Shown here: positions 21,174 through 45,400 of the stretch, piece after piece | Layout: each line of letters starts with the position of its first letter | Numbering within the stretch: the stretch's first letter is position 1 | Assembly: GCA_050298055.1 (NCBI GenBank) | Contig: JBNKTL010000040.1 | Coordinates: forward strand, 1 to 46,341 | Direction: 5' to 3' | DNA from: Spirochaetota bacterium | GTDB taxonomy: Bacteria > Spirochaetota > UBA4802 > UBA5550 | Length of the DNA: 46,341 nucleotides | Program-made: the position numbers and the translations under genes | The notes under the pieces: generated by a model | Databases searched by the model: none | The model's input: only the letters and a program-made list of their open reading frames with translations | What the model was told of the DNA's origin: nothing

Positions 21174-21315
21174 ATAACTACTCAGCTCTATGGCTAATAA
21201 TAACTGTTTTTATCTAAAATTTCAACAATATGTCCCCGCCGCCTTGGGCGGCGGGGACATATAAGTTATGCTTTATTATAAATAAGATTATTCTTATACA
21301 TAACTGAGTAATTAT
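21174..21315. mobile_element. MITE-like element, copy A
   Basis: TIR ATAACTACTCAG...CTGAGTAATTAT; central hairpin ATATGTCCCCGCCGCC-TTG-GGCGGCGGGGACATAT (21228-21262). Confidence 0.85.
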
Positions 21316-21413
21316 CATAATTATCGTTAAAATGCAATAGTTATGTTAATAAAATCTTATTTATTCATCAGATGATTATTTACTGATTTATAAATGTTGT
21401 CGATATAAATAAT

Positions 21414-21902
21414 ATGAAATTCATGAATAATTATCTCATCCCTTTAATCCTGCTGGTCTCTCTTCCCCTGGCAGCGCAGAATAACAATAAAGGTCTGAAC
21501 CTTGACCGGGTTGCCGACGATCTCAAGTACAGGAACGGCTACAGGTTTGTTGAACTGGGAAGATACAATAAGGCGCTTGAGGAGCTTAATGAATACCTGG
21601 AAATCTTTCTCTCGGGGACCCACAGGGACGAAGCCTATGACAATATCGCCCGGATATACTTTACCAGGCTTGACTACCAGAAGGCGGCCGGGATTTACAG
21701 GCGGCTTTTTGAGGAATTCAGCAATAGTGACAGCGGTATCGAAGGCTACTATAATATGGGCGTATGCTATCAGAAGATGGGATATAACAGTAAAGCTGCT
21801 GAGGTTTTCCGGGACATCGTCATGAATTACCCTGAATCCACAATGACCGGTAAAGCCAAAATCCAGGTTGATCTTCTTAAGATCCTGGAATCAGAAAATT
21901 AG
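21414..21902 (+). CDS. Exported TPR protein (CpoB/BamD-like repeats)
   Basis: Signal peptide; three TPRs; YPES motif. Confidence 0.8.
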   Translation: MKFMNNYLIPLILLVSLPLAAQNNNKGLNLDRVADDLKYRNGYRFVELGRYNKALEELNEYLEIFLSGTHRDEAYDNIARIYFTRLDYQKAAGIYRRLFEEFSNSDSGIEGYYNMGVCYQKMGYNSKAAEVFRDIVMNYPESTMTGKAKIQVDLLKILESEN

Positions 21903-21947
21903 TTGACCAAAAACACCCTTCCAATAAGTATGCCACTTTATTTTATG

Positions 21948-22089
21948 ATAATGACTTGGCACTATGGTTAAAAATTATTCATATTCAGTGAAATATTATT
22001 AAAATTTTCCCAATGCCTTTGGCAAAGGGGGGATATCACTCATATTTTTTCATTAACTGATAAAATTTCTCTTATAACCGGAAACTCAT
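21948..22089. mobile_element. MITE-like element, copy B (strongly decayed), upstream of fusA
   Basis: Colinear with consensus: ATAATGACTTGGCACTATGG...TTCCC-AATGCC-TTT-GGCAAA-GGGG...ATATCAC...TTCATTAAC; same length. Confidence 0.6.
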
Positions 22090-22116
22090 TAACACTATTT
22101 TGGAGATAAATACGAA

Positions 22117-24198
22117 ATGCCACTACAAAAGGTAAGAAACATCGGGATTGCCGCTCATATTGATGCCGGTAAGACCACAGTTACAGAGAGGATGCTCTAT
22201 TTCACCGGAATTACCCGGAAGCTTGGTGAGGTACATGACGGGCAGGCAACAATGGACTTCATGAAACAGGAACAGGAGAGGGGCATTACAATTGCTTCTG
22301 CCGCTATTTCATGTGAGTGGGAAGGACACCAGGTAAATATCATTGATACACCGGGACACGTTGATTTTACCGTTGAAGTAGAAAGATCCCTCAGGGTCAT
22401 AGACGGGATGGTGGCGCTTTTTTGCGCTGTCGCAGGTGTTGAGCCCCAGAGTGAAACTGTATGGAACCAGGCAGACAGGTACAAGGTGCCCAGGATTGCC
22501 TTTATAAATAAAATGGACAGAATTGGAGCTGATTTTGATGAAGCGGTTGGGCAGATGGACAAGTATCTCGATGCCAATCCTGTTCCTTTTCATGTCCCCA
22601 TCGGGAACGAGGATAATTTTACAGGCAGCATTGATGTTATCGATCAGAAGGCGTATGTTTTCACGGAGTTCGAACGAGAGGTCCTCGATATTCCCGAAGA
22701 ATACAGGGAGAAAGCTGCTGAAGCAAGAAACCTGCTTATTGAGAAGCTCGCGGATTTTGATGAAGAGATCATGGAACTTTTTCTTGAAGAGAAGGAGGTC
22801 CCTGCGGACATTCTTAAAAGGGCGGCAAGGGATGCTACCCTGCATATGCATATTACGCCCGTTTTTTGCGGATCGGCATACAAGAACAAGGGAGTAAGGC
22901 TTCTCCTGGACGCTGTCATCGATTACCTCCCGTCACCGGCTGATGTGGGCGCCATGGTGGGTATCGATATTGATGATCCGGAGAAGTCTCATAAAAGGGC
23001 CCCGTCAACACACGAGCCCTTTGCCGCCCTTGCTTTCAAACTTATCAACGACCCCTATGTGGGACAACAGACCTTCATCAGGGTCTATTCCGGTGAATTG
23101 AAGAGCGGAATGCAGGTCCTGAACTCAACAAAAGGAAAAAATGAAAGGATAGGACGTATCCTCCGGATCCATGCCAAGGAGAGGGAAGAGGTGGATGTGG
23201 CGGGCCCCGGAGACATTGTGGCCCTTATCGGAATGAAGTTCACCAAGACAGGGGACACGCTCTGTGACAGGGAGCACCCTCTTTTTCTGGAATCGATTTA
23301 TATTCCTCCTGCGGTCATTGAACTCAAGGTCACTCCTCCCACAAGAAAAGAGCAGGAAAAGATGGGTATCGCCCTCAACAAGCTTGCCAACGAAGACCCG
23401 TCATTCCAGACACGGTTTGATGACGAGACCAACGAGACAATTATTGCCGGGATGGGTGAACTCCACCTGGAGATCATTATCGACAGGCTCAAGCATGAAT
23501 TCAATGTTGAAGTTGAAGTGGGTGAACCGGCAGTTGCTTACAGGGAAACAATTACCCTTGAGGCTGACTGCGAGCACAAGTTCTCCAAGCAGACGGGAGG
23601 CAAGGGCCAGTTTGCCCATACTGTCATGAGGATAGAGCCCAACGAAGGGAAGGGTTTTGAGTTTGTTGACAAGATCAAGGGCGGGAACATCCCCACGGAA
23701 TTTATTCCCTCTGTACAAAAAGGAATTGAAGCCACAATGGATGGGGGTATCCTCACCGATTTCCCTGTTGTTGATGTTAAGGTTGTCCTCCTTGACGGAT
23801 CATTTCACGCGGTTGACTCCTCTGACATGGCTTTCCGAACATGCGCGTCGATCTGTTTCAAGGAAGGTTTTATGAAGGCAAAACCGGTACTCCTTGAGCC
23901 GATGATGAAGATCGAGGTGAATACACCGGATGATTATATCGGAGACGTTGTGGGTGACCTCAACAAGAGAAGAGGAAAAGTTGAATCCATGAGAAGGTAC
24001 AGGAAGGGAGCACAGAAGCTCAACGGGTTTGTGCCGCTTATGGAGATGTTCGGATACGCCACACAGCTCAGGTCGCTTTCAAGCGGAAGGGCCAACTATT
24101 CAATGGAGTTTTACCAGTATGTACCTCTTTCACAGTCAATACAGGAAGAGGTCCTCAGAAAATACAGGGAAGCAAAGGAAGCCAAGGCAAAGAAATAG
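22117..24198 (+). CDS. fusA: Elongation factor G (stand-alone copy outside the str operon)
   Basis: [49 protein letters not shown]. Confidence 0.95.
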
Positions 24199-24206
24199 AT
24201 AAAGAG

Positions 24207-24239
24207 AAAAAAGGCGGGGTTTTAAACCCCGCCTTTTTT
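24207..24239. terminator. Bidirectional intrinsic terminator
   Basis: AAAAAAGGCGGGGTTT-T-AAACCCCGCCTTTTTT between convergent genes. Confidence 0.9.
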
Positions 24240-24245
24240 ATATGC

Positions 24246-24719
24246 TCATTCGGTTTCAAGGATCCTGTCCAGTTTCTTTATCCACTCCTTTTTTCCCTTT
24301 TTTTCATTTTTATAGAATTCAAGGAACTTGTGGATGCGGTTGCATGCTTCGGTTGAAATATCGTGCTCAAGTTTGCAGGCCACGCTTTCCGCTTCATGAC
24401 TATTAAGCTTGAGGATCTCGCTGAAAAAATCGGTGAGGCAGTAATGTCTGTGGCAGATCTTGTCCGCTGTCTGCTTGCCCTTTCGGGTAAGTTCTATGTA
24501 TCCATATTTCTCATAGTCGATCAGTCCCAGCTCCTTGAGTTTATTCAATGCAGCGGTAACACTTGGCATTTTAATCTCAAGCCGTGATGCGATATCCTTT
24601 ACACGAACAATTTTGTTTTCATCAGCAAGCATTGATATTGTTTCAATATAGTCTTCCATGTTTGAAGAAAGCTGTGTGCTCATGTATCTTTCGTTCAGAT
24701 CAGATTTTTTCGTGGCCAT
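24246..24719 (-). CDS. DtxR/MntR-family metal-dependent transcriptional regulator
   Basis: MEDYIETI, VRVKDIA, PSVT, IELT..G, RH..L..F, ACKLEH. Confidence 0.9.
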   Translation of the reverse strand: MATKKSDLNERYMSTQLSSNMEDYIETISMLADENKIVRVKDIASRLEIKMPSVTAALNKLKELGLIDYEKYGYIELTRKGKQTADKICHRHYCLTDFFSEILKLNSHEAESVACKLEHDISTEACNRIHKFLEFYKNEKKGKKEWIKKLDRILETE

Positions 24720-24746
24720 TGGCTGTTCCCTGTTGATAGATTGCAT

Positions 24747-24856
24747 GTTATTGCTCAGTTATATCTGATTAAAATATCACCGGGATGTCTCCGCCGCCGA
24801 AGGCGGCGGAGACATCCCGGATTTGTGCTTGTTCTTTTAAACAGCTGAATAATTAC
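24747..24856. mobile_element. MITE-like element, copy C (shortened arms)
   Basis: 19-bp perfect stem CCGGGATGTCTCCGCCGCC-GAA-GGCGGCGGAGACATCCCGG (24780-24820); flanks GATTGCAT/GATTACAC. Confidence 0.8.
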
Positions 24857-24866
24857 GATTACACTA

Positions 24867-24895
24867 ATAAAATTAGTTTCTTCTAATAATGTCAA
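24867..24895 (-). promoter_or_regulatory. Promoter of the MntR-like gene with a candidate operator
   Basis: TTGACA-N17-TTTTAT on the minus strand; palindrome ATTAG-N6-CTAAT (24872-24887) overlapping the spacer. Confidence 0.5.
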
Positions 24896-24987
24896 ATAAA
24901 TAACAGGGAATACCGGAAAAAAAATTGACTAATGTATTTCTTTCAGTATAAATAAAAAGATTAACTGCAGAATTATGAATAATAATG

Positions 24988-25089
24988 GTAACTACTCAGC
25001 TCTATGATTAAAAATATGTATATTAACTAAAAACATCAGTTATATCTTTTTATCAATATGCCAATTTTTATACATAGCCGGGCAGTTAC
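24988..25089. mobile_element. MITE-like element, copy D (central hairpin deleted)
   Basis: GTAACTACTCAGCTCTATG...TATACATAGCCGGGCAGTTAC; flanks TAATAATG/TCATAACG. Confidence 0.8.
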
Positions 25090-25201
25090 TCATAACGATG
25101 CAATGAAAAATGAGACGGGTCATTCTTGCTGCAAAATTTAGTTGTTCAAAAAAAAGGTAGATCTATTGCCGGGTAAAAAATCGATTTTCTGAGAGGAGCC
25201 T

Positions 25202-26818
25202 ATGAGATCCAGGATACTTGTTTTCTTTTTGTTGGTATTTACAGCTGTTACACTTTTTGGAAAAGAACCGGAAAAGCAAGATAAAAAAATCCTTATTCTT
25301 CCCTTTGATAATTATTCCGGTTCCGGGTTAAAATATCTCTCAACCTATGTCCCGGAATTGATTAAAAAGTCCATTAAAGATCTGGAGGGTGTCAGAATTC
25401 TGGACGCGGAAGAATCAAAAACCCTCCTGGCTGAGAAAAACCTGAAAATCGAAATATCGTATGACAAAAAGACCGGACAAAAGGTCCTCTCGGGGACCGG
25501 CGCCTTTTCGGTTATCATGGGCCGCTATATCGTCCAGGGAAAATTTCTCAGAATGGATTACATGGCGCTTACAGCTCCCGGGGCAGCGGCCCTTGAGGGC
25601 GAAACGGAAGATATTCTCATGGATGATCTCTTTCTGTCGGCGCTTTCACGCTTCTCACATGTCATGGATACCTGGATAAAGACATATATCTTAAAGGAAG
25701 ATTATTTCAAGATATATGAAAAGGATGAGAATATATTCATCAGGTTACTCAACAGGGTAAGAAACTCTCAGATGGGCATCATTGTAAAGAACAGGTGGAT
25801 TTTTTCCGTCCTTATCCTCCTCTTCTTCTATTTCCTCTCAAAGATCGTTGCGCTCTTCTTTGAAAAGGTGTTGAAAAGGATCACGCGGAAGACAGCAATA
25901 TCCATGGATGAAGAGATCGTGGATATATCCATGAAACCCACAAAGTGGATCGTTCTCTTTTTTGGTCTGAAGATGGCAATCTTCTCCCTGAAACTTTCAC
26001 CGGCAATAAACCTTCAGTTTTCAAATATCACAACAGCGGTTATCATTATTCTGGTAACTTATATCGTTTCAAATGTCGTGGTCATTGTCATAAGATCCTG
26101 GGGGCACAAGGTCGCGTCGAAGCTGGATTCCCGCATTGATGATGATCTTGTTCCTCTCTTCGTAAAGGTCTCGCGGGTCATTGTTCTCTCCATAGGTATT
26201 ATCATGGTACTCTCCCGGTTTAACGTGGATATCGCGCCGCTTATCGCGTCCCTGGGGATCGCGGGTTTTGCCATAGGATTCGCGGTCAAGGACAGCCTGG
26301 CAAATATCATCGGGGGCATAGTCCTTATCCTTGATCAGTCATTCGCTGTTGGAGATAAAGTAACCATTGATGGAGATACCGGTGTCATAAAAGAGGTCGG
26401 CCTCAGGAACACAAAGATACAGACGTATGATAATGAGATAATCGTCATCCCAAACGGCGACCTGATGAACAAAAAATTCAAAAATTCGGTCCTTCCCGAT
26501 CCCATGATAAGGGTTGTAGTTGAGTTTACCGTTTCCTACGGGTCGGATGTTGACAAGGTTGAAAGAGTTGTGATCGATGCCTTGAAAACGATCCCGGATA
26601 TTGCCGAAGACCCGGCCCCGGCGGTTGTTTTCTACCAAATGGGTGATTTTGCCCTAAACTTTCAGGCCAAGTTCTGGGTCCCCGACTATGTGAACCAGTA
26701 TGGAAAGTGGATTGAAGCAACAAAGCTGGTTTATCAAACCCTGCAGAGAGAGGGGATCAGTATTCCTTTTCCTACACAGACAGTCTACCTGGAAAAGGGG
26801 GAGGGACAGCCCGGTTAG
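25202..26818 (+). CDS. mscS: MscS-family mechanosensitive channel with extra N-terminal exported domain
   Basis: ASLGIAGFAIGFAVKDSLAN, FAVGDKV, GLRNT, IPNG, GISIPFP. Confidence 0.9.
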   Translation: MRSRILVFFLLVFTAVTLFGKEPEKQDKKILILPFDNYSGSGLKYLSTYVPELIKKSIKDLEGVRILDAEESKTLLAEKNLKIEISYDKKTGQKVLSGTGAFSVIMGRYIVQGKFLRMDYMALTAPGAAALEGETEDILMDDLFLSALSRFSHVMDTWIKTYILKEDYFKIYEKDENIFIRLLNRVRNSQMGIIVKNRWIFSVLILLFFYFLSKIVALFFEKVLKRITRKTAISMDEEIVDISMKPTKWIVLFFGLKMAIFSLKLSPAINLQFSNITTAVIIILVTYIVSNVVVIVIRSWGHKVASKLDSRIDDDLVPLFVKVSRVIVLSIGIIMVLSRFNVDIAPLIASLGIAGFAIGFAVKDSLANIIGGIVLILDQSFAVGDKVTIDGDTGVIKEVGLRNTKIQTYDNEIIVIPNGDLMNKKFKNSVLPDPMIRVVVEFTVSYGSDVDKVERVVIDALKTIPDIAEDPAPAVVFYQMGDFALNFQAKFWVPDYVNQYGKWIEATKLVYQTLQREGISIPFPTQTVYLEKGEGQPG

Positions 26819-27675
26819 TTCCCGAGCCTGAAGTAGTTCTTCTCAATATACCGGAGGTCTTTTTTTACTCTGACGATAAGGGGGGACCTTTTAAAGACAG
26901 GGTCTCCCGAGTCGGCTTTTTTCAGGAACTTCCGGTAAATAGTCCTTACCATTTCCGGGTCTTTCAGGAGGGGGTCCTTTTCATAGATTTTACCCAGGAG
27001 ATAGTACGCATCATCGGCTGTTTCCCTGCTGCCGTAAAATTTCACAAGTTTAATTGCGGATTCAAGTGCCTGGTCCCCTTTCCTGTTCCTGAGGAATATT
27101 TTCCCCGAATAGAGGATTGCATTGTCTGCCAGCTGGTGGTCAGGGAAACGGGATGAAACCCTGTGAAAAAACTCAATAGCTTTGATCTCATTACCCTTCA
27201 CCATATGGCAGTACCCGGTATTATAGAGGGCCATGGGGTACTCCCCCGAATCACTCTTTATTTCCGAAAGCTCCTTTATGGCATTATCGTACCTGTATTT
27301 CTTAATAGAGATCCGGGAGAGCCATATCCGTGAGCTGTCAAGATAGGGACTTCGGGGATAATCTCTGGCCAGTTCCCTGAACTTATCTCCCGCGTGGTCA
27401 AGAAGATTGCTGTTATAGAGTTGTATCCCTGTCTTAAGTAGGATCTCATCGGGGGATGACATCCCGGCCGGCTTTTTATCCGCAGCCTCTTTTTCCTCCT
27501 CAACGGGTTCCTTCCCGGTCTTTTCAGCCGGGGCCGGAACTTTTACCGGGGCTTTTTCTGTTTCTTCCCGGTTTTTCAGCAGGGTGTTGATGATCTCTTC
27601 GGTTTTATTGAAATCCTTTGAGTAGAGAGGCACAACAAGGAACAGCACTGATAGTACAGATAGAATCTTTATCAT
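26815..27675 (-). CDS. Exported TPR protein
   Basis: Signal peptide; YPRSPY, FPDHQLADNA, ADDAYYLLG repeats. Confidence 0.8.
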   Translation of the reverse strand: MIKILSVLSVLFLVVPLYSKDFNKTEEIINTLLKNREETEKAPVKVPAPAEKTGKEPVEEEKEAADKKPAGMSSPDEILLKTGIQLYNSNLLDHAGDKFRELARDYPRSPYLDSSRIWLSRISIKKYRYDNAIKELSEIKSDSGEYPMALYNTGYCHMVKGNEIKAIEFFHRVSSRFPDHQLADNAILYSGKIFLRNRKGDQALESAIKLVKFYGSRETADDAYYLLGKIYEKDPLLKDPEMVRTIYRKFLKKADSGDPVFKRSPLIVRVKKDLRYIEKNYFRLGN

Positions 27676-28310
27676 TATTCAATTATCCCCTGGTCTTTAT
27701 TAATGGGAGAGGGTGTTCTCATATGATTTTCAGGACCCTTCATTTTCTCCTTTTTCTCTTCCCGGATACTTTTCACTGGAGTCTCTTTTTGCTTGATAAT
27801 TTCCGGTTCCTCGTGTTTGAGTTTTTTGTCAAGAGGAGAAACGCCAGGTTTTATTCTCCCTGTACTGTTGTAGTCACCTTCAACGATACTCCGTCCTTCA
27901 TAGGTTCCCGGTCCGCTCCGGTGTTTTATACTGCTTTCAGGTTCAATGATCCCCTCTTTCTTTTCAGGGACCATGTCGTTACGATTGGGAAATTCTATCT
28001 TTGCCCTGTCGCTGTATTTCATTTCGTTCAGCTGTTCTGATTCCAGCAGAGACCCGAACCTGGCTTCTTCTCTCTCCATCTTCCTGTCCAGCTGAAACAG
28101 GTCTCTGGTGTATTCCGCCAGGGGAGGGTTCTTGATCTGCGCGGCATCTCTGCCCGATGAGTAACCGATATAAACACCTATTGCGCAGAGTACAAAAATG
28201 ACCATAAAAAACATCTGCCGGATAAGGGTTACAGTCTTTGTATCAACACTGCCGATAAATCCGCTTACTGCGTTCAGAATAGGGGTGATTATTTTAGTAA
28301 CGGGATTCAT
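27675..28310 (-). CDS. Hypothetical single-TM protein
   Basis: One TM segment, charged C-terminus; operonic. Confidence 0.75.
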   Translation of the reverse strand: MNPVTKIITPILNAVSGFIGSVDTKTVTLIRQMFFMVIFVLCAIGVYIGYSSGRDAAQIKNPPLAEYTRDLFQLDRKMEREEARFGSLLESEQLNEMKYSDRAKIEFPNRNDMVPEKKEGIIEPESSIKHRSGPGTYEGRSIVEGDYNSTGRIKPGVSPLDKKLKHEEPEIIKQKETPVKSIREEKKEKMKGPENHMRTPSPINKDQGIIE

Positions 28311-28313
28311 ATT

Positions 28314-29153
28314 CTATTGCCTGTCTATTATAAAGATAACTCTGCAGTTCCTGAGGTTTTTCCTGGTTTCGGGACTGCTGAGAATTTTTCGAACGTCCCT
28401 GTTTGAGAGAACGGGGGACCCGTTCCTGCTTTTTATTGCCACAGCAAAGTAGGGTTTTTCCCCTGCCGCGCGGTCCTTCATGGCGGCATTATCGGTAAAG
28501 ACATATTTCACGGTTCCCCGCTTTGCAGCTTCCCCGATATTAATAAAATATCTTCCGAATATTTCAAGGCCTTCCTCGTTAAAAACGGAGGGAAGAAGCA
28601 TCGGTCTGATTCCAAGTTTTCGTGTGTCCACAACCAGGCTGCTGTATTCTGTGGGTATCGGGTTGTTGTGAATGACCGGCAGGGGGTCCTCGGGATAGGT
28701 GTAGGGAAGGGCGGCAAGGAGCATGCTCATCTTCATCTCGATTCGGCATCCCGAAGTAAAGAAGTCCACAGGGAACTGTTTGACTTTAACACCTTTATCA
28801 ATATACTCTGACAGCCTGGTTAGTGCCGACCGGTTATCCGTAAGCAGCTGCCCGAAGCTTGTTCTGTTGTCCACCTGGATATTCTTGATCAGTGAAATCA
28901 GGTTGATAATGGCGGTATCCTTTGCCCTTTCGTAACAGAATTTTCTCGCACTGTTCAGCGAGACAGGTCTGCCTTCATGGACATCAACAGGTTCGCCGCT
29001 GCTGTTGATTTTTACACGGGAGGATCCATATGAGATAATTGTTCCGCCTGTCCAGTCTATCCGATTCAGGTTCCCGGTAATACCGGAAGCAGTAAAAGGA
29101 AGGTATAAAATGAGCAGCAGAATAACTGATATTACTGATAGTCTTTTTTTCAT
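28314..29153 (-). CDS. Exported hypothetical protein (alternative TTG start at 29174)
   Basis: Signal peptide MKKRLS...ASG; IDW..G.I, YSSLVVD.R, RVIFIID. Confidence 0.75.
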   Translation of the reverse strand: MKKRLSVISVILLLILYLPFTASGITGNLNRIDWTGGTIISYGSSRVKINSSGEPVDVHEGRPVSLNSARKFCYERAKDTAIINLISLIKNIQVDNRTSFGQLLTDNRSALTRLSEYIDKGVKVKQFPVDFFTSGCRIEMKMSMLLAALPYTYPEDPLPVIHNNPIPTEYSSLVVDTRKLGIRPMLLPSVFNEEGLEIFGRYFINIGEAAKRGTVKYVFTDNAAMKDRAAGEKPYFAVAIKSRNGSPVLSNRDVRKILSSPETRKNLRNCRVIFIIDRQ

Positions 29154-29260
29154 AGGGGGTATAGCCTGTATCAAATATACTAATATATCGGTAATAATAA
29201 TATACTCATTTAGTATATATTGTCACCGGTTATTTTTAAATTATTGAGAAGAAGATTTCA

Positions 29261-29296
29261 CACAAAGCGCACGAAGCGCACGAAGCACACGAAGGA
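29261..29296 (+). repeat. Nonamer tandem repeat, four copies of CAC(G/A)AAGNN
   Basis: CACAAAGCG CACGAAGCG CACGAAGCA CACGAAGGA. Confidence 0.8.
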
Positions 29297-29323
29297 AGAG
29301 AAAAAGAATGTAAGAAAGGGGAT

Positions 29324-29365
29324 ATGGAGATAGATGAGATAAGCGGTTTAAAAATACTATCTTAA
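29324..29365 (+). pseudogene. Possible N-terminal remnant of a GxxExxY-family gene
   Basis: RBS AAAGGGG then MEIDEISGLKILS*, directly after the nonamer repeats. Confidence 0.4.
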
Positions 29366-29369
29366 AATG

Positions 29370-32578: not shown

Positions 32579-32607
32579 TCCGGTTTTTATAAATACATTT
32601 TTTTGGA

Positions 32608-32749
32608 GTAACTACTTAGCTGTATAGCTAAAATATACATATTTAATAAAATAACAGCCATATGTTCCCGCCGCCTTCGGCGGCGGGAACATATCAGTTA
32701 TCTTTTATTCATTAACATATCCAATTTATATACATAGCTGAGTAGTAAC
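32608..32749. mobile_element. MITE-like element, copy E
   Basis: GTAACTACTTAGCT...AGCTGAGTAGTAAC; hairpin ATATGTTCCCGCCGCC-TTC-GGCGGCGGGAACATAT (32660-32694). Confidence 0.88.
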
Positions 32750-32764
32750 TATAAGGATTAATCT

Positions 32765-35514: not shown

Positions 35515-35515
35515 A

Positions 35516-37099: not shown

Positions 37100-37321
37100 T
37101 TTTACATCTGCCGATGGGAAGATAATTAAATATGCTTTCTAAGGAATTCTTCTGGTCAAATTTATTATAGGGGGAAATCAGTAGTATGGCAAATAAAAAA
37201 AGTAGACTCTTTCCGGAAACTTGGGAAAAGATTTTTAGACAGGATTTACTGGATGGATAAAGAATTAAGAAGTTTAAAATCCCAACATTCCGGAATGAGG
37301 AAAAAATAAAAAGATAACTGA

Positions 37322-37348
37322 AAGGGGAGCGCTCCGGGCACTCCCCTT
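37322..37348 (-). terminator. Intrinsic terminator of the DUF1566 gene
   Basis: Minus strand AAGGGGAGTGC-CCGGA-GCGCTCCCCTT followed by a T-rich tract. Confidence 0.7.
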
Positions 37349-37397
37349 ATTGAAAATAATGATTTATCCGCTCCTACAGAAAAAATGAGCCGGTTAT

Positions 37398-38768
37398 CTA
37401 ATTGGCGTCCCGTACGCACCTCACATAGTTATAGCCTGCCCTGAGAATATCTCCCTGGGGGCCGGATGTGTATACATATGTATTTGTATTGCCAGGGGGG
37501 ATTAATGCACCAAAATCTGAATTTACATCTCCTGTAGTGTATGTAGTGGGAGAACTGGCGGTTTGTCCGGCCACAGTCTTATAGTCACTCCTCTGCGCTC
37601 CCGCGCCATGAACATCGTCGAAGCCGGTAATATATCCCATGCCCCTTCCGAAGGTGATATATGCCCCCTTTTTGCCGGTGCCAAGATAATTTAACAGGGC
37701 AGTGCTGCTCCAGTAGTATGCATAATCAGTATCACCGTTCTCATTGGTCAGGCTGGCAGTGTTAAAATAGCTTGCGTTGATTGCCGCGCTGGATGTTTCA
37801 CCCGGTGATTTTGTATAATCGATGATGCTCTGGAGCTCCTTAATATTGGGAAGCCTCCAGTCGGAATGGCCGCCGGTAGTGGTATCACTTTCACACTGGG
37901 AGATGGCGTCGGTGAAATCACTGGCGGCGCTGTCGTTTTGCCACCACATCAGGTTTGTTGCGCTGTCAGTTACCGTTGAATCTCCGTTATCGGTAAAGCT
38001 GTTTGTGCCGTAATCGGAGTTGTCCCTTACGCATCTCACATAGTAAGTCGCGCCGGTGACATCTGATTCATAGGACTTGAGGTGTCCGTCCACAAAGTTC
38101 AGTCCAAAGAACGCGTTTTCCAATGAATTTGTAATTCCTGACATTATCTGGGATGGATTCGTGGTAGTGGAGGCATACTGGCCGTCTATTATTCTTTCCC
38201 CGGCGTCAGTGTCACCGTAACCAACATCAAAATAATCGGTGTCTATAAAAGGATCATACCCGGTTGTGTCTACAGAGGTGCCGTTTGTTGTAGCCCCCGG
38301 GATGCCGCTTAAGTCCTGTCCGCTCATTAAATAAATGGAATAGAGTTCTTTTACTGAAGGAAGTCTCCAGTCGGAATATGTTCCATAGGTCAATTCATCG
38401 CAGTATGTTACCGCCTCGTCACGGGTCATTTTATCATCATCATTAAGTCCGTCAACACCGTCAGTGTCGCTGCTGGCCTGCCACATGAGCCCGGTGTTGT
38501 TGTCTACAACAACGGTCCCGCTGTTGCATGAGCTGTAGCTCGGCTGGTTCCCGCTGTATGCCCCATCCTGTCCTGTCCCCGAGCAGGTCACACTGCTTCC
38601 GGTAGTGGCATCATAACAGAGAGTCTGGTTTGTGTCCACTATTGTATAGGTATACGTGGGAGTCACTTCCACACAATCGGAGGTTTCTGTTGAACTGTCA
38701 TCTGAGCATCCTGTTCCTATTAAGAGTGCCATTGTAAGAGTAAAAATCGTTAATCGTAACATACTCAT
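37398..38768 (-). CDS. DUF1566 (Lcl C-terminal) double-domain lipoprotein
   Basis: Lipobox GTGC; two D..T.LMW...DWRLP..KEL...VRCVR domains. Confidence 0.9.
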   Translation of the reverse strand: MSMLRLTIFTLTMALLIGTGCSDDSSTETSDCVEVTPTYTYTIVDTNQTLCYDATTGSSVTCSGTGQDGAYSGNQPSYSSCNSGTVVVDNNTGLMWQASSDTDGVDGLNDDDKMTRDEAVTYCDELTYGTYSDWRLPSVKELYSIYLMSGQDLSGIPGATTNGTSVDTTGYDPFIDTDYFDVGYGDTDAGERIIDGQYASTTTNPSQIMSGITNSLENAFFGLNFVDGHLKSYESDVTGATYYVRCVRDNSDYGTNSFTDNGDSTVTDSATNLMWWQNDSAASDFTDAISQCESDTTTGGHSDWRLPNIKELQSIIDYTKSPGETSSAAINASYFNTASLTNENGDTDYAYYWSSTALLNYLGTGKKGAYITFGRGMGYITGFDDVHGAGAQRSDYKTVAGQTASSPTTYTTGDVNSDFGALIPPGNTNTYVYTSGPQGDILRAGYNYVRCVRDAN

Positions 38769-38900
38769 CCTTATAACTCCTGTTTCTCAATATTGAATAT
38801 AATAGATTAGATTAAAAAATTAATCAACTTCAACTACTTATTAACAATATAGGAGCATTTTGGGTCCCTGTCGACTCAACCGCTAAATCGATACGATTTT

Positions 38901-40043
38901 TTACAGGTTTTGTTGATTTTTAAATTCTGAAGGGGTCATTCCCGTGAATGTTTTAAACGCGCGGTTAAAGGTGGCTTTTGAGTTAAATCCTGCTTCTATG
39001 GACAATTGTAACAATGTGGCGTCAGAATATCTTTCACTTTTTAGCTTATCTTTTATATAATTTATTCGCCAGTTATTAATATAGGCGCAGAAATTAACTT
39101 TATAATGTTCATTAATAATCTGCGTAATATAGTGTCTTTTAATTCCCAGGGTCTTTGATAAATCAAAAATTGTCAGTTCACTGTCAAGGTAGGGCTTTTC
39201 CTGTTCCATATACTCCTCAATAGCGGAGAGCAAATCACCAACATCGTTCTCCTTAAGGCCTGATCGTGTATATTTTTTATTATCCGGCGCACTGGCGTTC
39301 TTTCCGGCTTGAGAGTGTGTTATCTCTTCAGAAAATACCCACGACTGGTTGTTTGAAAAAATACTAAAGACAAAAATAAATAATATCAGCCCGTAACTTT
39401 CAGCGATTCCCGGATTAATAATTGATGATTGTGGAGACAGAAAAATGAGTATTCCGATAAAAATATTTGTTCCCAGAAAAGCTATGGTGCTCAACCTGAG
39501 CCAATGGAGAGTGATCTTTGCCGGTTTACTGGAGAAGTAGTTATTGATATTCTGATTGTGCCGGTACAACCGGATTACAATAAAAATAGTATAAACAATA
39601 AATGAAATATTAACTGAAATGAATATAATGAGCCACTGAATATTGGGACTGTTTTCCTGAGATATATTCGGTGAAATTCTTCCATATGCCGGGGCTCCCG
39701 GCGGTGTTATATTCATACCGGCCAGTATCAGTATTGTAACCAGGAGAAAGGGGAGGAAATGAATAAACTTAATACTATTTAATGATTCTTTATCCTCAAT
39801 TATCAGGCAGGTATAAATATATAAAAAAGGCCCATAGGTAAAAGGTGTGGAATGAATAAAGGCAAAAAGAAGCCTGCTCGCATAGCCTGTCTGCAATTCA
39901 ATCAATTTTATTGTCATGGGCAGAGCAAGAAAGAGGATAAAGAGGCCTGCAACTTTTAACGCGTATGAACTCTGTTCCCGTAGATACGTGTAGAGGAACA
40001 TAAAGACCGATATGACACATCCAATTGTATATATATGAATCAT
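38901..40043 (-). CDS. Membrane-anchored AraC-family transcriptional regulator
   Basis: N-terminal TM segments (YGPFLYIY); KPYLDSELT, AGFNSKATFNRAFK..TGMTPSEF. Confidence 0.92.
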   Translation of the reverse strand: MIHIYTIGCVISVFMFLYTYLREQSSYALKVAGLFILFLALPMTIKLIELQTGYASRLLFAFIHSTPFTYGPFLYIYTCLIIEDKESLNSIKFIHFLPFLLVTILILAGMNITPPGAPAYGRISPNISQENSPNIQWLIIFISVNISFIVYTIFIVIRLYRHNQNINNYFSSKPAKITLHWLRLSTIAFLGTNIFIGILIFLSPQSSIINPGIAESYGLILFIFVFSIFSNNQSWVFSEEITHSQAGKNASAPDNKKYTRSGLKENDVGDLLSAIEEYMEQEKPYLDSELTIFDLSKTLGIKRHYITQIINEHYKVNFCAYINNWRINYIKDKLKSERYSDATLLQLSIEAGFNSKATFNRAFKTFTGMTPSEFKNQQNL

Positions 40044-40097
40044 GTTTGCTATTACTTTTATTTATCTTTTTAATAACAAGTAATTTATTAAAGATTT

Positions 40098-40238
40098 ATA
40101 ACTACTCAGCTATGTATAAGAACAGGCATATTCAATAAAAAAAATAACTGATGTGCCCCCGCTGCCGTAGGCGGCGGGGGCACATTGTTGATATTTCAGT
40201 AAAATATGTATATTTTCTCCATACAGCTGAGTTGTTAC
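40098..40238. mobile_element. MITE-like element, copy F (reverse orientation)
   Basis: ATAACTACTCAGCTATGTATA...CATACAGCTGAGTTGTTAC; hairpin ATGTGCCCCCGCTGCC-GTA-GGCGGCGGGGGCACAT (40151-40185). Confidence 0.88.
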
Positions 40239-40297
40239 AAATCTTTTTATTCGTCAAGTTATATATACAGCCTGGCAGGGAGGTTGCAGTTAATCTC

Positions 40298-41956
40298 TCA
40301 GTCGGTGGAAAGATACTTCTCAAGGTATTCGGTAAGATCGTTGATGTTTTTTCGTATCATCATTTTGAATTCCGGGGGGATGTTCTGACTCATCACAACC
40401 TTGTAATAGTCGATGGCCTCCCTGACCCGTCTCTTCTTTATCAGTTCACCGGCTTTTTCAAGCATGGGCTTGTACTTGTAGAATGAATATTCAAGGATGT
40501 TCTGTTCCCGTGAAAGGTGCATCTGTTCCGGCAGTTTGGAAAAATCAAAATTTACCTTCAGTATCGGGAGTTCTTTTTTCAGCTTTCTGTCTGTTTTTAC
40601 GAAGTTCCTGTAAAATTTTTCCTCTTCCCGTCTTTTCCGCTCCTCTTCCTTATTGAAGACGTCGTACTGGCTTTCATCCTCTCTCCTCTCTCCCATGATC
40701 TCGAAAGAATCTTCGTCATCTTTTTTTGACTTTTTATCGTCCCGGAGTATCTTTTCAAATATCTCTTCGTCGCTCAGTTCATCCTTCGTCTTTGGCTTTG
40801 TTATATCCTGCAAAAGGTCAAATTCGTTGAAGTCTTCATCCTCCTTTTCCCGGGTAATTTCGGTTTTGTCCTCAATTTTTTCAGAGACCTCAGGTTTCCC
40901 TGGTGTATCATATTGCCGGGAAGGTGCTTTCCCTTCCGCGATTTTATTTAAAAGGTCTGCTAAAGGCTCAGGATCAATTGCAACAGGTGATGGTTCTTTT
41001 TCTGATATTTCGTTGATCTTCCGGTCCAGGGCGCCAAGGTGTTCCATGAGTTCATCGAGTCTTCCGCCGGTATCGTCATCAGGATGACTCTCTGCGCCCC
41101 TGTCCAGGTCCGAGAGTTCATCCCTGAAGGATTCAACAATATCCTTTATATCCTCCAGTTCATCATTCAGTTCATCCAGGTCAGACTGCTTTGCCTTATC
41201 CTCCATATCGAGGTAATCATATTCCCTCTGGTCGAGTTTTTCATTCAGGTGGTCAAGACGGTCTTTGAGTTCGGAGATTTCCTTCTCCCGCAGATCATCA
41301 AGGCCGGGGGGCCTCATGTTTTCAAGTTCATCCTTAAGTTCCCTGCGAAGCCGGGCTTCCATCTCCTGTAAGGACTGTTTCGTAACGTCATCAAAAACCT
41401 CGATGTTGATCCTTTTCTGCTTGTTCCCGTCCACAGTGAATTTAAGGTCACCGCTTGTGACACTCTCCGGTAATGAGTCCCTTACAGCCCTGGACTTCTC
41501 CTCCTCTTTATGTTTTATATATTTCCTGAGGTATTCTATGTTTTCTTCAATTTTCTCTTTTGTTTTGATATCATTAATTCTGGCAGCAACACCTTCATAG
41601 AGGTTTATGGAGGTATCATAGTAACCCTTTTTCGCGTAAACTTCAGAGTTGAGAAGTGTCCTTCTGTAGACCCTGAACCGGGAGCTTTCCGGTATAATTT
41701 CATCGGTGAGGTAGGGGAGTTTGAACTCCTCGTCTGAAAGAACTTCATCATCTGAAGGGATTTTATCTGTTTTTCTCCTCTGCTGCCTGTCCTCTTCTTC
41801 GATCTGCTTGTCAGAGGCCCGCCTTCTCAGGGTCCGGTCTGGTAATTGGCCTTCCTCCTGTTTCCTGATTGCAGTTTCTTCCTCTTTGCCGCTTACAAAG
41901 AGCCAGACGATGATTCCCAGGATCAATAAACTTACAAGTACAAGTAGTATATTCAT
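40298..41956 (-). CDS. Membrane-anchored acidic coiled-coil hypothetical protein with TPR-like ends
   Basis: N-terminal TM, D/E-rich coiled coil, C-terminal helical hairpin. Confidence 0.8.
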   Translation of the reverse strand: MNILLVLVSLLILGIIVWLFVSGKEEETAIRKQEEGQLPDRTLRRRASDKQIEEEDRQQRRKTDKIPSDDEVLSDEEFKLPYLTDEIIPESSRFRVYRRTLLNSEVYAKKGYYDTSINLYEGVAARINDIKTKEKIEENIEYLRKYIKHKEEEKSRAVRDSLPESVTSGDLKFTVDGNKQKRINIEVFDDVTKQSLQEMEARLRRELKDELENMRPPGLDDLREKEISELKDRLDHLNEKLDQREYDYLDMEDKAKQSDLDELNDELEDIKDIVESFRDELSDLDRGAESHPDDDTGGRLDELMEHLGALDRKINEISEKEPSPVAIDPEPLADLLNKIAEGKAPSRQYDTPGKPEVSEKIEDKTEITREKEDEDFNEFDLLQDITKPKTKDELSDEEIFEKILRDDKKSKKDDEDSFEIMGERREDESQYDVFNKEEERKRREEEKFYRNFVKTDRKLKKELPILKVNFDFSKLPEQMHLSREQNILEYSFYKYKPMLEKAGELIKKRRVREAIDYYKVVMSQNIPPEFKMMIRKNINDLTEYLEKYLSTD

Positions 41957-41969
41957 GATATAATAAAGT

Positions 41970-42107
41970 TTAACTATTCAACTATATGAATAAAATTACA
42001 TATTTTCTAAAAGAGCAACGATATGTCCCCGCCGCCAAAGGCGGCGGGGACATATTAGTTATGTTTTTTTGTTGAATATATTTATTCTTATACATAGCTA
42101 TAGTTAC
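41970..42107. mobile_element. MITE-like element, copy G, with exact target-site duplication
   Basis: Hairpin ATATGTCCCCGCCGCC-AAA-GGCGGCGGGGACATAT (42021-42055); TAATAAAGT at 41961-41969 and 42108-42116. Confidence 0.9.
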
Positions 42108-42272
42108 TAATAAAGTAATAAAAAAAACTCTTAAGGGCAATGCAATGAGAGAGTCGGCAGTACATATTTACCCCTATGGTATATTATCGGAAAAATCCTT
42201 AAATAATTCAATATCTTGAAAAAAAAGTTATTACTCTATCCATGCAAATGGATTATTTATTTGAAAAACATT

Positions 42273-42411
42273 GTATCTACTTAACTGTATGGCTATAATT
42301 AACCTAATTTAATAAAATATTAACAATATGTTCCCGCCGCCTTCGGCGGCGGGAACATGCCAGTTCTCTTCTTTTATGAATTATTATTCTTATGCATATT
42401 TGAGTTGTTAT
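42273..42411. mobile_element. MITE-like element, copy H
   Basis: Hairpin ATGTTCCCGCCGCC-TTC-GGCGGCGGGAACAT (42328-42358); degenerate TIRs. Confidence 0.85.
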
Positions 42412-42416
42412 AATAG

Positions 42417-42470
42417 CATATTGTTGATATTTTTAATGAATATGAATATTTTATCCATATAACTGTGTTG
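42417..42470. mobile_element. Half copy (inverted arm) of the MITE-like element
   Basis: CATATTGTTGATATTTTTAATGAATATGAATATTTTATCCATATAACTGTGTTG aligns with 40181-40234. Confidence 0.65.
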
Positions 42471-42604
42471 AAAGAAAAAAATAATGATTTGACATATGTT
42501 TATACAAATATTAAAGACTTTTTTAATCATTTTTGTTACCAAATCACCCTAAATATTACATACTGGAGTGATAAAAGGTACCATATTACAATAAGGATGT
42601 ACAA

Positions 42605-42826
42605 ATGAGTGAACAAGAGACAAAAATAAGCAAAGATATGACCTTTGGTGAGCTGCTGAAACAGTTTCCCAAAGCGGCTCCCGTACTCATGGGGTATGGG
42701 CTCCACTGTATTGGATGTCATATCGGTGTAACTGAGACAATCGAAGAAGGAGCTCGTGCTCATGGGCTTGATGATGGTAAGATTGAGTCAATGATGAAGG
42801 AGCTTAATGAGCAGGCTGTGCAGTAA
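42605..42826 (+). CDS. DUF1858 domain protein (hybrid-cluster-associated redox disulfide domain)
   Basis: ISKDMTFGELL..FP...GLHCIGC....ETIEEGA..HG. Confidence 0.88.
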   Translation: MSEQETKISKDMTFGELLKQFPKAAPVLMGYGLHCIGCHIGVTETIEEGARAHGLDDGKIESMMKELNEQAVQ

Positions 42827-44954
42827 GCACAACTGTTGACATTTTTCTCACATAATACCTGTTCTCAGCGATTTCTTCTTCTTCCCCTGAGTCAAGGAGA
42901 TCCCGGGGTGATTTGCAAGATGTATCAATGATCCTTTTCCAGGGGGCAGTTGACGGCGCATGGGGAATTTCATATTGCCTGTTTATTTTTGATGCGTTGA
43001 ATATTATATAGATATCGGAATCTCTCTGATTATGGCTTTCCCGGGAATACTCCCCGTTTATAAGCAGGGCCAGGGAATGGCTTTTCCCGCTCCAGTCCGG
43101 TGCGTGAGGCCTGTGACCGTGCCAGGAGATATCGGGAGATGAATATCCTGCAACGTCTTTTCCGGTGAAGTGTGTTTTCTTCCTTAAAACAGGGTGTTCT
43201 TTTCTGAAACGGATCATCCCCGCAGTAAATCTCACAAGGTCCCTGTTCTTTTCAAGGAGGCTCCAGTCAATCCACGAAATATCATTATCGTGGCAGTATG
43301 CATTGTTGTTGCCTCTCTGAGTTCTTCTGAATTCATCACCTGCAAGAAACATGGGGATCCCCTGGGAGAGAAAAAGCGTTGCAATAAAATTTTTCATCTG
43401 CCTTAATCTTATCTGATCAATAAACTGTGTTACTTCATTTCCCTCAATTCCATAATTGTAGCTGATATTGTGATTGTCCCCGTCCAGATTTTTTTCACCG
43501 TTTTCATAATTATGTTTCATTTTAAAACTTACAAGATCGTTCAGGGTAAAGCCGTCGTGGGATGTTATAAAATTTATACTGTTGAGAGGCCCCCCCCTGT
43601 CGTGGCCATACAGGTCGGAACTTCCGGTAATCCTTGTGGCAAATTTTCCGGTGTAATCCGGATCGCCCCGCCAGAAGCTTCTTACGTCATCCCTGTATTT
43701 CCCGTTCCACTCGGCCCACCTTCCCGGGAAATTCCCTACCTGGTATGCTCCTGCCGCGTCCCAGGCTTCGGCAATGATTTTTGTATTCCTCAGGATAGGA
43801 TCTTCTTCAATCTTTTCAACGAGAGGGGGGTTGCTCAGGATGTTGCCCTTCCTGTCCCTTCCGAGAATTGACGCGAGATCAAATCTGAAACCGTCAATAT
43901 TCATCTCCACAACCCAGTACCTGAGACATTCCAGGATAAACTCCCTTATCAGGGGATGGTTGCAGTTCATGGTATTGCCGCAGCCGGAATAGTTCCTGTA
44001 GAACCTTTTGTCTTCATCAAGAATATAGTATATTGAATTATCGAATCCCCTGAATGATACAGTGGGGCCGTGTTCATCGCCCTCTGCCGTATGGTTGAAA
44101 ACCACATCGAGGATTACCTCGATACCGGCATCATGGAATGCTCTTACCATCTCCCTGAACTCTGTAACCTGGTGACCCGGTTCTCCGGTTACCGCATAGA
44201 GACCTTTGGGCGCGAAAAAAGCGAATGTGCTGTATCCCCAGAAATTTTTCAGCCTTTCTCCCGTGACAGGATTAGTGTTGATGTTCTCTTCAAAATCGAA
44301 TTCCTGTATGGGCAGGAGTTCAACGGAGGTTATCCCCAGTTCCCTGAGATAAGGAATTTTTTCTGTAAGTCCCCGGTAGGTCCCCCGGTGTTCCACACCT
44401 GATGACGGGTGCATGGTATATCCCCTGAGATGCATTTCATAGATAATCGTTTCATCTGACGGGATGTTGATGGGCCTGTCTCCGAAACTGCTGCTGCTGA
44501 TAACGATACTTCTGGGGACATGTTCCCTGTTATCAGTTTTGGAAAAGGAGAGGTCTTTCAGGGGAGAATCGGGATCGTAGCCTCTTGCCGTTTGCAGGTC
44601 CCATTTGAAGTTGTCGGTTACCGCCCGTGCATGAGGATCAACGAGGAGCTTGTTCCTGTTAAACCTGTGTCCCCGGAAGGGCTCATAAGGGCCGTTTACC
44701 CTGTAGCCGTAAAGCTGCCCGTGCCCGATCCCTTCGATCCAGATATGCCAGATATCACCTGTTTTATTTAACCGGGGATCAAGTTCTATCTCCGTATATT
44801 CCGATTCCCTGCGGTCGTCCTTGAAAAGAACAAGGGCCACAGAGAGTGCATCCCTGCTGAAAACAGAGAATTGCGTTCCCCTGTCTGTAACACGAGCTCC
44901 CAGGGGAAGAGGATTTCCCGGGTAGGTTTTAAATTTTATTTTTCCGTTTCTCAT
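42804..44954 (-). CDS. glgX: Glycogen debranching enzyme / isoamylase (GH13)
   Basis: GNPLPLGA, NFWGY, DVVFNHTAEG, DGFRFDLA, IAEAWD, HDGFTL, GNNNAYC. Confidence 0.96.
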   Translation of the reverse strand: MRNGKIKFKTYPGNPLPLGARVTDRGTQFSVFSRDALSVALVLFKDDRRESEYTEIELDPRLNKTGDIWHIWIEGIGHGQLYGYRVNGPYEPFRGHRFNRNKLLVDPHARAVTDNFKWDLQTARGYDPDSPLKDLSFSKTDNREHVPRSIVISSSSFGDRPINIPSDETIIYEMHLRGYTMHPSSGVEHRGTYRGLTEKIPYLRELGITSVELLPIQEFDFEENINTNPVTGERLKNFWGYSTFAFFAPKGLYAVTGEPGHQVTEFREMVRAFHDAGIEVILDVVFNHTAEGDEHGPTVSFRGFDNSIYYILDEDKRFYRNYSGCGNTMNCNHPLIREFILECLRYWVVEMNIDGFRFDLASILGRDRKGNILSNPPLVEKIEEDPILRNTKIIAEAWDAAGAYQVGNFPGRWAEWNGKYRDDVRSFWRGDPDYTGKFATRITGSSDLYGHDRGGPLNSINFITSHDGFTLNDLVSFKMKHNYENGEKNLDGDNHNISYNYGIEGNEVTQFIDQIRLRQMKNFIATLFLSQGIPMFLAGDEFRRTQRGNNNAYCHDNDISWIDWSLLEKNRDLVRFTAGMIRFRKEHPVLRKKTHFTGKDVAGYSSPDISWHGHRPHAPDWSGKSHSLALLINGEYSRESHNQRDSDIYIIFNASKINRQYEIPHAPSTAPWKRIIDTSCKSPRDLLDSGEEEEIAENRYYVRKMSTVVLTAQPAH

Positions 44955-45219
44955 ATTCGTGAGCAGCCGCAGGGTTTTTAATCTCTACTGCAAAATTCTA
45001 TCATCCCGCTTCGGGGATGTCAATATGATTTATATTTAATAATGTCAATAATTAATATACGCTGGAGGTTCAGGGAGAGAGTAAGGGTAAAAGAGATGTG
45101 GTGGTGAAAGAGAAAAGAAAAAATTCTTAAAAAACATTAATGCAATTTTCCGAAATACCCGAATATAATAAAGATTAATAATCAGATTATACTCCTATTT
45201 GTATGATTTACCAGGTTAT

Positions 45220-45257
45220 AGGCTTTTGCAACCACTTCTGATGCAAAAGCCTTTTTT
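45220..45257 (+). terminator. Orphan intrinsic terminator
   Basis: AGGCTTTTGCA-N11-TGCAAAAGCCT-TTTTT; no plus-strand gene upstream. Confidence 0.7.
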
Positions 45258-45400
45258 GTACCTGCTTGGCTGTATGGCTAAAATATTCATATTTATTAAA
45301 ATGTCAACAATGTGTTACCGATGTTAATACTTACAGGGGAACATCTCAGTTTTGTTGGATTAATGATTGTAATTTTTCTTTCACAGAGCTGAGTAGTAAC
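45258..45400. mobile_element. MITE-like element, copy I (hairpin decayed)
   Basis: GTACCTGCTTGGCTGTATGGCTAAAATATTCATATTT...GGGGAACATCTCAGTT...AGCTGAGTAGTAAC. Confidence 0.75.

Follow-up and report, generated by a model that had tools for sequence, protein, structure and literature searches.

Among the described bacterial repeats, Correia, ERIC and RUP elements duplicate TA. In the sections of two sources that deal with them, Correia/NEMIS, ERIC, RUP, Chunjie and QMITE2 are short, non-coding, intergenic elements bounded by TIRs and TSDs, which occur in hundreds of copies (up to 711 for ERIC in Photorhabdus) and fold into a long stem-loop (PMC3184786, PMC10969869). The repeats that we analysed in a window of 46,341 nucleotides from a Spirochaetota bacterium (contig JBNKTL010000040.1) share these features, and differ from those MITEs in their ends, their helper family, their 8-bp duplication and a hairpin common to other-ended families. 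The parallel with ERIC, Correia and RUP drawn in a preliminary description of this DNA thus holds for the architecture, but not for the 8-bp duplications and the IS66/ISBst12 ends. REP, REPIN and BIME repeats are likewise GC-rich hairpins, short and abundant, as far as the relevant section of the source goes (PMC3184786); unlike them, the MITE hairpin is not free-standing, is unlinked to the seven Y1 loci of the genome and is depleted between convergent genes. The same section describes ISs inserting into REPs, a nesting that is the reverse of a hairpin inside a MITE (PMC3184786). On the transposase side, ISDge4 of Deinococcus geothermalis (ISBst12 group) has, in the part of the report consulted, one 449-aa ORF and an 8-bp repeat, was seen to transpose, and carries ends about 1 base in 12 off those of the MITE, which has an 8-bp repeat as well (PMC12898284). 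Compared with IS66/ISBst12 elements, those of the window are 141 bp long and non-coding. We found no IS66-derived MITE in the literature searched, ISfinder being outside that search. Elements of this kind are well known and a MITE alone is ordinary, though this one lies near hundreds of gene starts; the unusual part, new here, is the hairpin common to MITE families with different ends.

We consider it very probable that the repeats constitute a non-coding MITE family moved by an IS66 (ISBst12-group) transposase. The ends, the duplication length, the copy number and a cognate IS in the genome carry this reading, and from them we infer the IS66 enzyme as the mover. Searching the genome with a profile recovered all ten loci previously listed as nine copies and a half copy (E 1e-37 to 5e-4). 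Allowing at most two mismatches, the window contains 11 instances of the 12-mer end motif where 1.94 are expected, a count reached in 0 of 100 shuffles, and the nine window copies align with a mean column identity of 68%. The type example is the full-length copy at 32608..32749 (+ strand, 142 bp; nhmmer 125.4 bits, 32605-32752; flanks matching at 5/8; fold z -9.2). It has a left terminal inverted repeat of IS66/ISBst12 type at 32608..32621 (+), which matches the ends of single-ORF IS66 elements, a central GC hairpin at 32660..32694 with a 16-bp stem and a 3-nt loop (fold -20.4 kcal/mol), and a right terminal inverted repeat at 32736..32749 (-) found by end-motif and profile searches. Also full-length are the copies at 21174..21315 (+, 142 bp; 124.8 bits, 21173-21317; flanks 5/8), placed between divergent cNMP-binding and TPR genes (Pfam), at 40098..40238 (-, 141 bp; 130.8 bits, 40094-40242; flanks 6/8), at 42273..42411 (+, 139 bp, decayed; 96.5 bits, 42271-42413; flanks 4/8) and at 45258..45400 (+, 143 bp, hairpin decayed; 60.9 bits, 45252-45403; flanks 3/8). 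The copy at 41970..42107 (+; 110.9 bits, 41970-42106) is near full-length, with an exact flanking duplication. At 24747..24856 (+, 110 bp; 57.2 bits, 24745-24860; flanks 6/8) the element is internally shortened with its hairpin intact, and at 24988..25089 (+, 102 bp; 43.4 bits, 24986-25093; flanks 6/8) the hairpin falls in an alignment gap and the fold is -9.8 kcal/mol. A strongly decayed copy with an approximate right end, drawn from the alignment, lies at 21948..22090 (+; 34.1 bits, 21947-22076). It begins directly after a putative promoter-like motif outside the element (21903..21947, +), conserved in orthologous spacers of relatives and upstream of an EF-G-like gene, and is probably in the 5' leader of that gene. 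The half copy at 42417..42468 (-) comprises the left arm only (21.1 bits, E 5e-4, model 24-73). The GC hairpin of the proposed consensus is central in the family, but it is missing at 24988 and decayed at 21948 and 45258. Genome searches with the transposase domains PF01609, PF03050 and PF01797 gave no match on the contig of the window.

Target duplications of 8-9 bp had been proposed. The flanks support 8 bp, exact in 15 of 76 copies (0.15 expected), but not 9 bp (1/76 exact). Mean identity of the 8-bp flanks is 0.74 vs 0.39 and no other length stands out; at 2 bp, 11 exact pairs were seen vs 7.65 expected, so the signal sits at 8 bp. The duplication described as exact at 41970 does show a 9-mer on both sides, but it can also be read as an 8-bp duplication if the boundary moves by one base. 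The three decayed 8-bp pairs quoted earlier match at 6/8, 6/8 and 5/8, as described, and the remaining window copies at just 3-6/8. Random AT-rich flank pairs already agree at 39% of positions on average, so any one pair in the window is weak evidence.

Genome-wide abundance, suspected from the window, was borne out by 413 loci in the profile search vs 0 in a reversed-genome control. The length of about 140 bp is likewise general, with a mode of 139-142 bp and no transposase gene inside, and the column table gives terminal inverted repeats of about 14-16 bp. The MITE occupies about 1% of the genome (49,425 bp), and only 9 of the 413 copies lie mostly inside ORFs. Identity to the nearest copy has a median of 84%, and the expansion is old, with most copies decaying. 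As no pair is more than 95.7% identical, recent movement of the MITE is unsupported, although the IS looks recent. The family is patchy, its strict end-plus-hairpin pattern being present in 5 of 122 genomes of the order. The element gave 0 matches in Rfam and 0 in blastn of plasmid and phage DNA.

A non-autonomous element with a DDE helper acting in trans had been suggested, together with a search for the autonomous partner. Such a partner was found in a single-ORF IS66 of the ISBst12 group that ends in the same terminal repeats, and cognate IS66 ends exist in the same assembly, which points to a helper that would act in trans. Elements of 1520-1544 bp with these ends and one ORF of 479-482 aa occur in three relatives (G009, G019 and G027), with a broken one in a fourth (G034). 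The transposases of 3/3 relatives score 295-299 bits against NCBIfam IS66 (NF033517, cut-off 180), with the domains PF03050, DUF6444 and zf-IS66. In the source genome the helper is assembled only as two kinds of terminal piece at contig ends, with identical left IS ends at three contig breaks (C74, C75, C91), identical right ends at two (C43, C73) and open frames that share 66-76% identity with the protein of G019; no intact cognate IS was found within a contig among end pairs 250-4000 bp apart. The C75 and C43 flanks form an exact 8-bp duplication, and the helper is probably intact and multi-copy in this genome. Exact 8-bp duplications also surround two plasmid IS66 copies; in the B. thuringiensis plasmid IS66, which has such a duplication, both 12-bp ends are identical. 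None of the full IS copies of the relatives showed an exact duplication (0, 4 and 5 matching positions of 8; in one the locus end truncates the flank). MITE and IS have just about 16 terminal bases in common, so the MITE did not arise from the IS by simple deletion. Additionally, G034 contains hairpin-free MITEs of 62 and 72 bp with the same IS66 ends, 3 of the 4 seen having exact 8-bp duplications. The result links an abundant MITE with ISBst12, a group of IS66 that has received little study, and offers a minimal substrate for studies of IS66 transposition. Other assignments of the ends were rejected. The classical three-ORF IS66 at C87 and C91 has different ends. An IS4/ISPepr1 helper would have YT-AA ends according to the IS4-family end table (PMC2266710), but the MITE ends begin with GT and 0/3 PF01609 loci of the genome carry them. 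An attC reading of the TAAC...GTTA ends was discarded because the flanking genes are housekeeping ones in both orientations and IS66 explains the ends.

In the TPR-fusA orthologous spacer the family is absent from 25/25 relatives, all of other genera; 3 of them have a hairpin element in this spacer, at differing places, and 22 have none. No base-level empty site was found, the source genome being the sole member of its genus in the genome set. In sequencing contigs from three runs of one study, one of them possibly the source, none of the joints listed skips a copy; those joints link different copies. Motif matches in L649 were not confirmed as family members by the profile search.

We propose that a single-ORF IS66 DDE transposase, made elsewhere in the genome, would bind both ends of the MITE of about 141 bp and move it into AT-rich DNA, creating the 8-bp duplication. 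An old expansion would have left most copies, now decaying, and those that survive would be intergenic and near gene starts mainly since such DNA is AT-rich and tolerates insertion. Against this stands the under-use of convergent spacers, which persists when AT content is matched (11 vs 25.6 expected). The hairpin may have been captured early as a passenger. Template switching during replication (repairing the stem, flipping the loop), and not selection, would keep it in order, and recombination at the hairpin would swap it between co-resident MITE families. For this passenger role, with maintenance by template switching and exchange by recombination, we have a slight preference. Of 49 double changes in the hairpin 45 are compensatory, with 9.3 doubles expected and no such excess at the ends, and each of the two subfamilies contains the loop in either orientation (13/11 and 16/8), so that about half of the copies are flipped. 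Compensatory changes together with loop flips are the pattern expected from template switching. A test of the loop flips on the tree was weak, since a stem variant is likewise random on that tree (10 vs 10.9). Template-switch maintenance of hairpins, with compensatory stem changes and loop inversions arising without selection, is described in the part of PMC8794818 consulted, where the system consists of RNA genes with rare loop inversions, whereas about half of the MITE hairpins are flipped.

Could the element now be mainly a host regulatory module (part of a promoter, a terminator or an mRNA-stabilising hairpin) under selection near gene starts? Copies have a median distance of 60 bp to the nearest gene start, and 163 lie in divergent spacers vs 117.5 expected by length, but AT matching accounts for most of this bias (146 expected), and the two orientations relative to genes are about equally common (118/91). 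In the window, one copy directly follows the conserved promoter-like motif and MITE hairpins make up 4 of the 10 terminator-like matches in 39900-46341; against this, promoter-like matches are at chance level (14 vs 14.5), intact hairpins are as frequent near starts (0.41) as far from them (0.47), and G/C site conservation is barely higher in the hairpin (0.88) than at the ends (0.84). The hairpin elements in the TPR-fusA spacer of 3/25 relatives would fit a regulatory role, but their differing places and the 22 spacers lacking one do not, and we regard this role as very unlikely. We hold it extremely unlikely that an HUH (RAYT) enzyme moves the element as a REP/REPIN-type palindrome whose terminal repeats are incidental. 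A GC hairpin with a 3-nt loop in hundreds of intergenic copies and seven Y1-transposase loci in the genome would suit that view, but the hairpin lies within 1.5 kb of 0/7 of these loci, and only 15 of 272 hairpin matches fall outside the family, vs 18 in the control, mostly in GC-rich, apparently coding DNA. Furthermore, no HUH enzyme is needed for elements with exact IS66 ends and a sharply defined 8-bp duplication, and copies avoid convergent spacers, where P. syringae REPs are enriched according to the section consulted (PMC3184786).

Two other views of the hairpin are compatible with movement by IS66. The hairpin may aid the spread of a MITE under any transposase, for example through extrusion or bending that pairs ends 100-140 bp apart, which we find rather unlikely. 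Three families that differ in ends and target rules all have it at their centre, 95 of the 132 end pairs in the source genome bear it, and shortened copies have not expanded (13/135, with 12 different breakpoints). However, the hairpin-free MITEs of G034 carry exact duplications, other palindromic cores occur inside the same three end types, and a founder effect accounts equally well for its dominance. A wider form of this idea, also doubtful, is that the hairpin is a transposase-independent amplification core, which would make any MITE bearing it more mobile or better retained and would have passed between families served by IS66, IS5-like and 9-bp-duplicating enzymes in one bacterial order. 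MITEs would then evolve by combining exchangeable ends with a core under selection. One core in three such families offers a simple way to test what lets some MITEs amplify and whether their internal structure counts. We judge it unlikely that the hairpin is mobile by itself, as a very small unit put into the AT-rich middle of MITEs by some enzyme. The arms of the three families lack significant similarity, and a REP-type core, different from the hairpin, in family-A-like arms at five loci of the source genome shows that cores are replaceable; but the source genome has no free-standing hairpin family, copies that lack it resemble deletion products whose breakpoints mostly differ, although two pairs nearly coincide in theirs, and no candidate enzyme was found.

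Regarding the two further families of related bacteria with the same central hairpin and different ends, one makes 9-bp duplications and the other has TA flanks and an IS5-like helper; modal lengths of the three hairpin-bearing families are near 101, 121 and 141 bp. Two hybrids between hairpin-bearing families exist, in G012 (loci L384 and L385), and they occur where families co-occur. The 12 cross-family arm comparisons gave no significant similarity (best p 0.036), so common ancestry of the arms is unsupported by them. The 9-bp family may resemble ISMae2. Its helper was not found in 14 DDE loci, 30 end loci and the first 100 of 129 G011 ends, nor among the matches listed from 120 viral and 117 metagenome stretches. 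A viral scan for the TA-flanked family covered 14 stretches and gave no end pair. One arm of the TA-flanked family has a 10-base match with an IS66 end (p 0.036, uncorrected).

The ten loci between positions 21174 and 45400 of the window, put forward in the preliminary description as a MITE family, are genuine, since a profile search gives precisely those ten on this contig. The end motif occurs 11 times in the window against 1.94 expected by chance, nine of the copies align at 68% identity, and the flanking pairs quoted at first match the sequence as given. The copy at 24747 is shortened, the one at 24988 is shortened and lacks the hairpin, and those at 21948 and 45258 carry a decayed hairpin. 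The abundance proposed for the whole genome also holds: the profile search found 413 loci at E<0.01 with strands merged (380 at the stricter E 1e-5; 0 in the reversed genome used as control), 205 of them near full-length, and together they occupy 49,425 bp. When flanks of 76-77 copies with no more than 2 mismatches per end were compared at 2-12 bp, 8 bp alone stood out, being exact in 15 of 76 copies vs 0.15 expected (identity 0.74 vs 0.39); thus, of the 8-9 bp target duplication first suggested, the 8 bp stands and the 9 bp does not. By crude ORF calls, 9 of the 413 copies lie mostly within ORFs, and the 383 assigned to spacers comprise 209 tandem, 163 divergent and 11 convergent cases, against an AT-matched expectation of 212, 146 and 26, so most of the spacer-type bias is target composition, the target DNA being 77% AT. 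The arms fall into two subfamilies. For 120 copies, identity to the nearest neighbour is 83.6% at the median and 95.7% at most, which marks an old expansion.

We infer with high confidence that the MITE is moved by an ISBst12-type IS66 enzyme; IS4/ISPepr1, the initial guess for a helper, failed. A search of 41 genomes with the end motif gave in G034 a pair of ends 1544 bp apart with a broken IS66 gene between them, and pairs of MITE ends around an ORF, whose search had been recommended at the outset, enclose intact single-ORF IS66 elements in three genomes (G009, G019 and G027) of 1520-1543 bp and 479-482 aa, all three passing the NCBIfam IS66 cut-off. In the source genome, three identical left and two identical right IS66 ends lie at contig breaks, as would be left by a multi-copy IS that had collapsed in the assembly. 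Open frames at these ends share 66% and 76% identity with the G019 protein. The flanks on contigs C75 and C43 together give an exact 8-bp duplication, and for the remaining three ends there is no partner flank. On a B. thuringiensis plasmid, an IS66 copy matches the MITE at every base of its two 12-bp ends and has an exact 8-bp duplication. Similarly, PMC12898284 describes ISDge4, an ISBst12-group element with demonstrated transposition, as having one ORF, an 8-bp repeat and ends nearly those of the MITE. The sequence common to MITE and IS66 is limited to about 16 terminal bases, and the MITE interior therefore derives from elsewhere.

Other pieces bounded by IS66 ends were also observed. The source genome holds a 181-bp derivative of the cognate IS66, formed by internal deletion and still carrying the beginning of its transposase gene (C6:102525-102705), and minimal end pairs of 24-52 bp, one of them (C13:68578) with an exact 8-bp duplication. 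A further family there has these IS66 ends and arms that are in part those of the MITE, with a REP/REPIN-type palindromic core where the hairpin would be (C21:3486-3674, C28:39405-39570, C29:23416-23573, C58:26855-27047 and C66:5034-5306). In other genomes, such ends surround a 505-bp piece whose ORF resembles, by eye, a GxxExxY protein (L025, G004), a 204-bp palindromic unit (L028, G009) and a 526-bp deleted IS (L024, G021).

Within the order, the strict end-plus-hairpin pattern matched in 5 of 122 genomes, and G026 has one further copy that it missed; lengths there are 134-144 bp and 8-bp duplications are often exact. Thirty loci with the TPR gene were compared, and 26 of them, including that of the source genome, keep the TPR-fusA order. 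As to empty sites in relatives, another check proposed early on, the orthologous TPR-fusA spacer is without the MITE in 25 of 25 relatives, but these belong to other genera and so do not give base-level empty sites, and three sequencing runs from one study yielded none among the joints listed. A hairpin element lies elsewhere in this spacer in 3 of the 25, and relatives also conserve a promoter-like motif that directly precedes the 21948 copy.

DNA searches in relatives matched mostly the hairpin alone. Of 301 genomes searched across the phylum, 13 have the exact hairpin, and all 13 belong to the source's order (129 copies in G011, 94 in G004, 27 in G013 and 16 in G035). It is also central in two further families, one of 121 bp with ends unlike those of the IS66-type MITE and with duplications of 9 bp (exact in 21 of 47 cases vs 0.5 expected; the hairpin was part of the basis for choosing these cases, and one locus counts twice), and one of 101 bp (24 copies) with ends in TA context and no longer duplication. 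Arms are alike inside each family and not detectably so between the three. Ends of the TA family, many of whose matches are records titled uncultured spirochaetes, bound a 1029-bp element in a record from another phylum; its DDE_Tnp_4 protein is closest to IS5 and, at 119.7, falls below the NCBIfam cut-off of 140. No helper of the 9-bp family was found among the DDE loci, end loci, and viral and metagenome stretches listed. Nine DDE_Tnp_1 matches with a 464-aa frame in G011 (L126-L136 and L128) are unrelated to the hairpin families; two that were compared have 1503 identical bases in common and a matching 10-bp repeat flanking them.

The IS66-type family occurs together with the 9-bp type in G012 and with the TA type in G295. 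Among 20 G012 loci, partly selected on listed coordinates suggesting hybrids, two (L384 and L385), as judged by eye, have the left arm of the 9-bp family and the right arm of the IS66 family, with the hairpin as the junction. L384 retains its 9-bp duplication, and this favours conversion in place over misassembly; L385 has none. At L386 of the same genome one family is apparently nested inside the other. In G001 (L008, L169 and L179) there are tandem arrays whose unit is one end plus the hairpin, the matches being 70-180 bp apart on several contigs.

What keeps the core in these elements may be read in several ways, and we lean, with slightly better than even confidence, towards a passenger that template switching maintains and recombination exchanges. 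Among 84 of 115 aligned copies (31 with lost or decayed stems were left out), the stem has 49 double changes where 9.3 would be expected. Of these, 45 are compensatory and fall into 12 types, one variant making up 19 of the 45; the MITE ends have 43 doubles vs 34.4 expected, 18 of which pair. When the profile score is used to orient the elements (median margin 15 bits), both loop orientations are present in both arm subfamilies, and a derived loop variant is found both ways round (9 and 3). On the arm tree loop orientation is random (26 changes vs 26.5), a stem variant being random as well, which makes this a weak test. Exactly such stem compensation and loop flips have been attributed to template switching (PMC8794818), and the covariation is on that account no evidence for RNA function.

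Other GC-rich palindromes are also enclosed by all three end types. IS66 MITEs do not require the hairpin, G034 having hairpin-free ones of 62-72 bp; that the core aids mobility seems unlikely. Still less likely is a separate mobile unit, the source genome having neither a free-standing hairpin nor a link of the hairpin to Y1 transposases. Retention by host selection appears the least likely: conservation of G/C sites in the hairpin is barely above that of the MITE ends, and hairpin integrity is independent of gene context.

Abundant MITEs are on record in spirochaetes. Neither an IS66-derived MITE nor one core common to MITEs of different transposases came to light in a search with most subscription literature and ISfinder outside its scope, which is weak evidence of novelty in both cases. 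A 2024 MITE review nowhere mentions IS66, and the MITE catalogue of PMC11602168 could include this family.

Other features accompany the MITE in the window. A 552-aa acidic protein (40298-41956) without Pfam match has MITE copies on both sides. A 46-bp inverted match of 72% (5209-5254 and 25163-25208), with no other match in the genome, is probably due to chance, and a small dispersed repeat (37190-37265) has 9 further blast matches in the genome. The 75-bp direct repeats originate from the gene of a probable lipoprotein of 534 aa (13200-14804) with DUF285 repeats, a Listeria-Bacteroides repeat and a weak PKD match. Separate from the MITE, a REP-like doublet (6901-7181) contains a perfect 29-bp inverted repeat (6951-6979 and 7153-7181), and its motif has 21 copies in the genome.
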